Of a stretch of 8,581 bases of DNA, positions 1 through 3,000 are shown one piece after another (within the stretch, counting starts at the first letter, position 1; the number at the start of each line of letters is the position of its first letter). The position numbers are program-made. Origin of the DNA: a virus (lineage: Duplodnaviria; Heunggongvirae; Uroviricota; Caudoviricetes); the IMG/VR virus record IMGVR_UViG_2609459857_000002, positions 1 to 8,581 of that record; one strand, written 5' to 3'.

Positions 1-3000
1 CTGTCGGCCTTTGAGGTCGTGGTATGGATGACGGATGGCTGGCCGCTGTATGAATCCCGCCTGAAGGGAAAGCTGCACGTAATCAGCAAGCGTTACACTC
101 AGCGCATTGAGCGACATAACCTGAATCTGAGACAACATCTGGCAAGGCTGGGACGGAAGTCACTGTCGTTCTCAAAATCGGTGGAGCTGCATGACAAAGT
201 CATCGGGCATTATCTGAACATAAAACACTATCAGTAAGTTGGAGTCATTACCGAGACAGTATGGACTTACCTTCTTTACCTTCTCTTTCTTCACTCCTTT
301 CTGCATCTTCAGGTATCAATTGGCGCGATAATCTTTACGACGCTTCATTTCGTGGCGTTCCGTTTTCGGTGGAAAGCGACGAGGGTTCGTTCGGACGCCG
401 CGTTCAGGTCCATGAATACCCAAACCGTGACAAACCGTACACGGAAGATCTCGGGCGCGCCACGCGACGGCTGACGATTAATGCGTATCTCGTTGGTGAT
501 GATTACGCAGAGCAGCGCGACAGGCTGATTACCGCGATTGAAACCGCCGGGCCGGGGACACTGATCCATCCGCAGTTCGGTGAAATGCAGGGCTGTATTG
601 ACGGACAGGTGACCGTTTCTCACTCCAGCACTGAAGGCCGTATGTGCCGGGTTTCATTTCAGTTTGTTGAGAGCGGGGAACTGTCATTTCCGGTCGCCGG
701 AGCCGCAACCGCCAGAAAACTGGAGGAGTCGTCCGGATTCCTGGATGAGCTGATTGAAGACATGTTCGGCGATTTTGATCTCGCGGGAATATCGGACTTT
801 ATTCAGAACGATGTTATTGCCCGGGCAACCGATATGCTGGGAACCGTTCAGACAGCTTTCAAAATGGTTAATTCTGCTGTTTCTGCCGGAATGAGGCTGA
901 TGCAGGGCGATTTATCCGTCATACTGATGCCGCCATCGGTTGCCAGTGATTTTGTGCATACGTTGCAGGATACCTGGCGGGCCGGAACCAGACTGGTGGA
1001 TAACACACAGGATCTGGTGCAGTCCATAACGACAATGTCCGGTATTACGCTGGATCCAGGACTGGCACCGCGTGCGGTGTGGCCCACAGATTCCGCATCG
1101 GTTGTCAGGCAAAAACAGCAGACAAATCTGGTGGCTGCAGTCATCCGGACGACGGCAATCAGCGAGGCTGCAAGGGCGGTCACTTCACTGCCGCAACCCG
1201 GAAGTCTGGTGAAAAATCAGCAGGCGGTTGTGGCTGTTGGTGGTTCCACTGAACGTCAGTCCGATATCATTCATGTTTCTCATCCGGCGCTTGACAGCGT
1301 GGCAGCCAGCACAGAGCAGGATGAGACAGCGCAACCACCCACGCGGGAAAATCTCACCATCATACGCGAATCGCTGAACGCGGCAATTGAACAGGAGCTC
1401 AGGCGTACGGCGGATGACAGTCTGTTTTTTCAGCTGACGTCATTACGTACAGAACTGAACCGGGATATTCAGGCCCGTCTGGTTCAGACGGAGGAAACCG
1501 CAGAGCGAACGCCAGCGGAGGTTCTTCCTGCGCTTGTTCTGGCTGCGTCATGGTACGACGATGCGTCCCGTGAGACTGATATCCTTGAGCGAAATGCCAT
1601 CTCTCATCCTGGCTTTGTTCCGGTCAGGGCATTAAGGGTACCCGTCAGATGAATAATACCGTTTTACTTCGGGTTTCCGGTCGCGAATGGGGCGGCTGGA
1701 CATCCGTCCGTATCAGTGCGGGCATTAACCGTATTGCCCGGGATTTTAATGTTGCCATTACCACCCGCTGGCCCGGCAGCCGGGATTATCAGCCCCGGAT
1801 AAAAAATGGTGAGCTGGTTGAAGTGCTTATCGGGGATGAGCCTGTGCTCACCGGATATGTGGAGGCACTACCGCTTCGTTATGACGCCAGCAGCGTCAGC
1901 ATGGGAATTGTCGGGCGAAGCAAAACAGCCGATCTGGTTGACTGCTCTGCTTTGCCACTCCAGCAGAGCGGAAAAAACCTGCTCAGAATAGTCAGTGAAC
2001 TGGCTGCGCCATTTGGCATCACCGTTGTTGATGCTGGCGTGCCGCAGACAGCGGTGATTGATGCCCAGCCGGAACATGGCGAAACCGTTGCCGATTGTCT
2101 TAACCGGTTACTGGGGCAGGTTCAGACGCTGGCTTATGACGATGAATGCGGGCGACTGGTTCTGGGAAAACCCGGAACAGGTAAAGCGGCGACGGCGCTG
2201 GTTCTGGGAGAGAATATTCTTTCCTGTGACACGGAAAGAAGCATCAGAGAGCGGTTTTCTGAATATCAGGTCAGTGGGCAGCGACCGGGCAACGACGATG
2301 ATTTTGGTGAGGCTACCATTGCCGCAATACGACAGACTATTCAGGACAGTGGTGTGACCCGTTATCGCCCTTTGTTGATTCAGCAGTCAGGCACAGCAAC
2401 GACAGCAACCTGTAAGGCCCGTTGTGAATTTGAAGCGCGCCAACGGGCTGCACTTACCCGTGAGACAACATATACAGTTCAGGGCTGGCGGCAGGGCAGT
2501 GGCGCGTTATGGCGTCCGGGGTTATCTGTCATCGTTTTCGACCCGCTGAATAATTTTGATAATGATGAACTGGTGATCGCAGAAGTCACCTATAACCAGG
2601 ACGACCGGGGCATGACGACTGAATTACGGGTTGGCCCGGCAGATGCTTATCTCCCCGAGCCTGTTACCGCCAGGAAGAAAAAAAATGTTGAGGAGGATTT
2701 CTGATGAACGGGTTTTCTCTTCGCAATCTGATTTCCCGGGCTGTCATCACGGCGGTGGATTCCGCCAGAAAGTGTCAGTCTGTAGGGTTGAAAATGATAG
2801 CCGGAGATCAGAAACAACACGTTGAACACCTTGAACCTTATGGTTTTACATCTGCCGCACAGAACGGTGCTGAGGGCGTTGCTTTATTCCCGGCGGGCGA
2901 TCGTTCGCATGGTGTGGTTGTGGTCGTGTCTGACAGACGTTACCGGTTGAAAGGACTGAAACGTGGGGAAGTGGCGCTTTATGACGATCAGGGGCAATCC

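Follow-up and report, generated by a model that had tools for sequence, protein, structure and literature searches.

The DNA analysed here, referred to as the window (8,581 nt; positions 1 to 8,581 of IMG/VR virus record IMGVR_UViG_2609459857_000002), is the right arm of a ~40-kb phiP27-like prophage in Escherichia coli 2-011-08_S1_C3, and it opens with the end of the insertion sequence (IS) IS1, which lies 8 nt upstream of a gene resembling N of phage Mu. We propose that in this prophage IS1 has replaced a moron cassette between the tape-measure protein (TMP) gene and the N-like gene, both of which are intact, either by an insertion and then an adjacent deletion or by recombination between IS1 copies, and we give this reading a probability of roughly three in four. 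The likely effect would be loss of the moron and somewhat weaker initiation at N, with inactivation of the prophage and IS-driven expression both less likely.

A proposed replacement of a moron cassette by IS1

The first 252 nt of the window are the right-hand 252 nt of IS1 (IS1 positions 517-768, + strand). They differ from the last 252 nt of K-12 IS1A at 16 of 252 positions (93.7% identity) and reach the canonical IS1 terminus, ...AAGTTGGAGTCATTACC, at window 252, where the right terminal inverted repeat ends ...GGAGTCATTACC. The 3′ end of insB occupies 1-237, with its TAA stop codon at 235-237, and its match to Pfam DDE_Tnp_IS1 (E=3.2e-41) covers positions 54-131 of the 131 in the profile. 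Contig JNNA01000025.1 in assembly GCA_000700165.1 is identical to the window over its nt 1-8581, so that window position 1 is a contig end, at which the short-read assembly broke within the IS1 repeat; in the Logan assembly of SRR1186595 the break falls at this point too. The strain name comes from a protein on a sister contig, which is named for E. coli 2-011-08_S1_C3. The truncated look of IS1 at the start of the window thus reflects the assembly of what is a full element and has no biological meaning as a boundary.

The other side of IS1 is found in the same assembly on the 65.6-kb contig JNNA01000071.1 (hereafter contig 71; L018, L022 and L030 are stretches of it), which we reached through the exact TMP protein of an IS-free relative, a protein present on only 4 contigs, contig 71 being one of them. 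The end of contig 71 carries, in this order, an intact 649-aa TMP gene (L018 10001-11950), a 35-nt spacer and the left end of IS1, which starts GGTAATGGTGCCAACTTACTGAT... at L018 11986 in the same orientation as the right end in the window. IS1 therefore sits just after the TMP gene, 35 nt past its stop codon; an earlier note on this DNA, made from the window only, had thought it probably inserted in or just after that gene, and the second of these placements is borne out. Conserved IS1 inverted repeats (GGTAATG/GGTGATG...CCAACTTA...) are present at both ends. Furthermore, insA, recognised by its Zn_ribbon_InsA (3.7e-21) and HTH_Tnp_IS1 (1.1e-23) domains in Pfam, is followed by insB, and both genes lie on the + strand, in the direction of the N-like gene and the late operon. 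In its termini, in its possession of insA and insB and in its fit to 768 bp the element resembles K-12 IS1A and related isoforms, from which it differs as a diverged isoform, with 96.9% identity to IS1A in the left 293 nt and the lower value given above in the right 252 nt. Taken together, these two pieces fit individual IS1 copies of 768 bp from complete genomes at 99.4%. Given the orientation of the ends, this isoform match and the parsimony of the arrangement, we infer that a single 768-bp IS1 joins the two contig ends. The right junction is absent from complete RefSeq E. coli genomes, where all high-coverage matches to window 1-1700 begin at 253 or 257, and an exact scan for it across species-representative genome contigs (one genome per species) gave no match.

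Comparison with an IS-free reference, a metagenome contig (L017/L006) that is 99.9% identical, revealed what lies between the two junctions in an uninterrupted prophage. Its left side shows 13 mismatches in 11,985 nt, and its right side, compared over window 253-8112, has 2 substitutions. On L017 the breakpoints fall after 11985 (...gaggcaaaatta) on the left and before 12539 (gagacagtatg...) on the right, and the 553 bp between them (L017 11986-12538) are gone from strain 2-011-08_S1_C3, giving a net size change of +215 bp (+768 - 553). The sequences flanking IS1, gcaaaatta on the left and gagacagta on the right, are 553 bp apart in the IS-free relative and contain no 8- or 9-bp repeat, unlike the flanks of a usual IS1 copy. 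IS1 normally duplicates 8 or 9 bp of its target (PMC12428005), and an absent duplication is a recognised signature of adjacent deletion or of recombination between IS copies (PMC11708052). The IS-mediated deletions of this kind, known for IS1, IS150 and IS903 (PMC11708052), share with the present locus a retained IS (here a single one, on the argument above), a deletion running from the exact IS end, unduplicated flanks and colinearity with an intact relative. The loss described here differs from them in being very small (553 bp) and in taking out nothing but the moron cassette, which has an essential tail gene on either side. The 9-bp duplication anticipated in the earlier note (gagacagta, 253-261) does not recur beyond IS1. 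We also considered a decayed duplication, given that 5/9 positions of the flanks match, and rejected it, since both flanks equal the relative exactly and the surrounding DNA is ~99.9% identical; judged against this relative, the five matches are chance.

The lost segment encodes a 160-aa protein with a lipoprotein-type signal (MIKPFLMTVAILTSC...), which belongs to phrog_5586, a family of unknown function, and had no Pfam match in a profile search. It also held a strong intrinsic terminator, consisting of a 10-bp stem and a T-run (L017 12506-12528), that ends about 10 nt before the N ribosome-binding site and is present in all IS-free moron-bearing relatives; a terminator scan of window 1-600 found none. 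The cassette between the TMP and N-like genes behaves as a moron, because phiP27 is without it and has 15 nt between its TMP gene and L48, its counterpart of the N-like gene. The lineage studied here, by contrast, had it: the 35 nt that remain downstream of the TMP stop codon and the 8 nt before ATG 261 match the moron-bearing lineage, and therefore the ancestor of this prophage had the moron; a moron-less, phiP27-like ancestor was rejected, as these nucleotides do not match phiP27. Separately, a 100-aa protein from a Logan contig (P0007) is chimeric, with the moron lipoprotein's C-terminus making up its last ~60 residues and unrelated sequence the first ~40, which hints at another rearrangement or insertion within the moron gene in some genome.

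In the history that we propose, the ancestral prophage would have carried the moron cassette, comprising the 160-aa lipoprotein-like gene and the terminator, between the TMP gene and the gpN-like gene. IS1 would have inserted into the AT-rich spacer between the two, and the 553 bp would then have been lost, presumably through an IS1-mediated adjacent deletion (intramolecular replicative transposition) or through recombination of two nearby IS1 copies. Either route would leave one IS1 in the direction of the late operon and no target-site duplication. An intermediate with the IS1 insertion and without the deletion was not observed.

The N-like gene, its expression and the alternatives

The N-like gene (261-1652, + strand) is a 463-aa open reading frame (ORF) that opens with ATG 261 and encodes a Mu gpN/gp43-like DNA circularisation (baseplate hub) protein. 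It matches PF07157 DNA_circ_N (E=3.3e-36), entering the profile at position 2 with residue 25, and the phrog_184 baseplate hub family (E=8.5e-136, profile 4-408 of 411), and it lies between the TMP gene and the gp44/P-like hub gene, as expected of a full-length member of the Mu gpN family. The protein is 97% identical to phiP27 L48 over 463/463 residues, with an equivalent ATG, and gene calls on 22 contigs give the identical 463-aa protein from this start. Even against Mu gp43 (the N product), where two segments show identity of only 31-37%, the numbering is shifted by just 2 residues, with residue 30 opposite gp43 residue 28. On these alignments ATG 261 is the native start and the N-like gene is full length, with 5′ truncation excluded, which settles a point that the earlier note had left open.

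The sequence immediately upstream of this ATG is also native. The 8 nt gagacagt (253-260, + strand) are a remnant of the N leader shared with IS-free loci, and 9/9 IS-free loci with the identical N protein read ...TTTTTTTATAGTG directly followed by GAGACAGTATGG (the upstream part also being written ...GCCGCCAGAAATTGGCGGTTTTTTTATAGTG). At the IS1 junction the native leader, ..TAGTGGAGACAGTATG, becomes ..TTACCGAGACAGTATG, so that the Shine-Dalgarno sequence changes from GGAG to cGAG, its first G being lost to the junction (GAG = 253-255). The computed duplex with the anti-Shine-Dalgarno sequence weakens from -6.4 to -3.0 kcal/mol. The clipped Shine-Dalgarno sequence is the one visible lesion to N, and translation initiation of N is likely to be somewhat weaker.

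Lambda Q is the paradigm for control of late genes by antitermination (PMC7171158). In the present prophage, a Q-like antiterminator gene (DUF1133, E=4.5e-105; Phage_antitermQ PF06530, 29.1 bits where the cut-off is 26) is situated upstream of the genes for lysis and structure, and the intrinsic terminator that precedes N in the relatives implies that baseplate expression would need antiterminated transcription. Because the prophage encodes this Q-type antiterminator and the IS-free ancestor already needed terminator read-through at the same spot, we infer that the baseplate genes would still be transcribed from the Q-dependent phage late promoter and not from the IS. Q-modified polymerase would probably also traverse IS1.

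Two other arrangements of the DNA around IS1 have to be weighed against replacement of the cassette. Simple transposition of IS1 into the TMP-N spacer, with gagacagta as a 9-bp duplication and nothing lost, would be in line with the usual 8-9 bp duplication (PMC12428005), and the right junction alone is compatible with it; but it is highly improbable, as the left flank in the same assembly reads ...gaggcaaaatta, not ...gagacagta, and corresponds to the point 553 bp upstream in the IS-free relative. Alternatively, the contig ends might not be joined by one IS1 at all, the locus being either a composite with two IS1 copies or the site of an inversion or translocation that splits the prophage and makes it truly defective. 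Short-read contigs do stop within IS1 on both sides, E. coli genomes have a median of ~10-11 IS1-matching places, IS-mediated rearrangements are common (PMC11708052), and the local sequence alone is compatible with a single IS1 and with a rearrangement alike. Walking left on contig 71 informs completeness, not adjacency, because an IS1 × IS1 rearrangement would leave both local junctions as they are. We nevertheless regard such a separation of the ends as unlikely: both IS1 ends have the same orientation and fit one 768-bp isoform at the 99.4% given above, a mere 553 bp separates the breakpoints, with the prophage colinear apart from this, and there is no sign of additional DNA.

The remaining alternatives concern the N-like gene itself. 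The earlier note suggested that the baseplate operon may now be driven from IS1, whether by a hybrid promoter using TTGGAG or by read-out from the transposase promoter. IS1 insertions are documented to form fusion promoters, going by an entry in Table 1 of PMC9330008 (Prentki et al. 1986), and the present locus resembles them in having an IS1 end on the 5′ side of a gene and a single -35-like hexamer, TTGGAG at 239-244, in that end; moreover, insA and insB run in the direction of N, and upstream transcription is known to enter and cross IS1 (PMC12428005). What the locus lacks, compared with IS1 fusion promoters, is an acceptable -10 at the needed spacing, that is, 16-18 nt downstream in the flank and upstream of the ribosome-binding site: the -10 would fall at ~261-268 (TGGACT, 3/6). 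This geometry puts the -10 at or after ATG 261, and the predicted start past the ATG and within the coding sequence, and therefore such a transcript could not encode full-length N. Indeed, a promoter scan found no sigma-70-like site in window 1-600, and an exhaustive hexamer search across the junction gave no hybrid promoter, the best pair scoring 7/12. The IS1 promoter is, furthermore, weak, and an operon driven from IS1 seems to us very improbable. It is hardly conceivable that ATG 261 is a mere first methionine left after 5′ truncation by IS1. The frame is open upstream to 195 (after TGA 192-194), inside IS1, as the earlier note observed, along with the end of IS1 at 252 and the start of the ORF 8 nt further on at 261, both correct to the base. 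Positions 195-260, however, contain no ATG, GTG or TTG; phiP27 L48 and all relatives share the ATG and the 463-aa length; the two family profiles are covered from positions 2 and 4; the offset from Mu gp43 is a mere 2 residues; and native sequence persists in the 8 nt that precede the ATG.

Replacement of the moron cassette, with continued Q-dependent transcription of N, has considerations weighing against it as well. IS1 insertions are classically polar, the read-through by Q is argued from general lambdoid biology, and a low level of transcription may leave IS1 from its own promoter. As for the rearrangement, neither contig contains the middle 223 nt of IS1 (positions 294-516), and the sequence is compatible with more than one order of events and with either junction as the original insertion site.

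The prophage and the rest of the window

The prophage combines lambdoid early and late control with an HK97-type head and a Mu-type contractile tail. On contig 71 the early region runs from the integrase through DUF4224, a RecE-like exonuclease VIII, DicB, an HTH repressor-like gene, YdaS/YdaT and DUF968 to RusA; these are followed by the Q-type antiterminator, an N6_N4 methylase, two holins and an M15 endolysin, and then by HNH, the P27-family TerS, TerL, portal, protease, capsid, connectors, sheath, tube, chaperone and TMP genes. The P27-family TerS, the HK97-type head, the Mu-type tail and the placing of Q and the lysis genes in phiP27 order mark it as phiP27-like. All modules are present, from the integrase to the fibres, phage genes continue to the left of IS1 with the TMP gene intact, and ORF lengths are as in relatives; judged on gene content, the designation as a defective prophage that the earlier note had favoured is not supported. 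In the early region, an eaa/DUF551-type gene (L022 1111-1434, equivalent to L030 10001-10324, on contig 71) encodes 107 aa, as against 176-183 aa in the listed full-length members of its cluster; this 107-aa form was read on 7 contigs and may represent a second small lesion.

The tail module has a close known counterpart in that of phiP27 (NC_003356, an Stx2e phage), with 97.5% nucleotide identity from N to gp46. It shares the gene order TMP-N-P-gp45-46-47-48-fibre-assembly with phiP27 and, for N, P and gp45-gp48, with Mu, and TerS is of the P27 family. In contrast to phiP27, the inspected stretch (L030) showed no stx between Q and the holin, where the N6_N4 methylase stands instead, so the prophage would not be an Stx-converting member in the region read. 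The chromosomal site differs too. On the window's contig, read past the window (L014), a tRNA-Ser(UGA) gene, which we take to be serT of the K-12 map, lies at 8882-8969 on the minus strand and is followed by hyaABCDEF (from 9396), appCB and appA, and homology to the chromosomal flank of a relative (L003) resumes at 8799. With tRNA-Ser(UGA) and hyaA just past the prophage, integration was therefore at this tRNA-Ser gene, in the serT-hyaA interval, and not at the site of phiP27.

Downstream of the N-like gene, gene calls and Pfam matches, all on the + strand, define a baseplate block of the gp44/P-like hub (1649-2704), gp45 (2704-3237), gp46 (3243-3656), gp47/Baseplate_J (3649-4731) and gp48 (4731-5321). 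All ORFs of this block (1649-5321) are intact, abut or overlap one another and have lengths equal to those in IS-free relatives. The same evidence places a tail fibre at 5308-6516, a tail-fibre assembly protein at 6519-7064 and, at 7088-8581, a second tail fibre that bears a phage_tail_N domain, again on the + strand. The interval 5308-8581 is the end of the prophage late operon, with attR and serT ~0.2-0.4 kb beyond the window.

The second fibre gene contains a homopolymer at 8113-8120, which is A8 here and gives a 497-aa ORF; in the near-identical L006 it is A7 and gives a 355-aa ORF. One of the assemblies may contain a sequencing error here, or the tract could be prone to slippage that switches the fibre C-terminus on and off. 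Close relatives among phages exist only for the first ~200 aa of the 497-aa protein (the Rac-SA53 tail fibre at 97%, phiP27 L56 at 84%), and the C-terminal ~295 aa had no strong match in the phage collection. Beyond this gene (L014 8582-8798) there is no DUF4376 or second assembly gene, unlike in the relatives L002-L004.

IS1 at the TMP-N junction and what it means

A second, independent IS1 insertion was seen on a Logan contig of SRR36308047 (L016 3530-3588), in which the moron protein is named Shigella flexneri. On this Shigella-type contig IS1 is oppositely oriented, and its right end directly adjoins nt 31 of the N coding sequence (window equivalent 291/292). Among the moron and TMP proteins of Shigella flexneri and S. 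sonnei, many are incomplete or come from contigs no longer than ~4-6 kb, and many Shigella copies of the two genes stop at contig breaks; this suggests that in Shigella prophage remnants an IS often breaks the TMP-N region. It is possible, if doubtful, that the TMP-N junction of phiP27-like prophages is a recurrent IS1 target, where insertion modulates or silences baseplate expression or sheds the moron as a step in domestication. If so, N translation in this strain could also depend on the weakened ribosome-binding site.

For annotation, the N-like gene is to be entered as complete, and the prophage is not to be called defective on this evidence. The biology is ordinary and already known, with no new mechanism or family. 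The locus offers a tidy natural example in which IS1 would have removed a moron and an internal terminator from the middle of a late operon while leaving both flanking essential genes undamaged.

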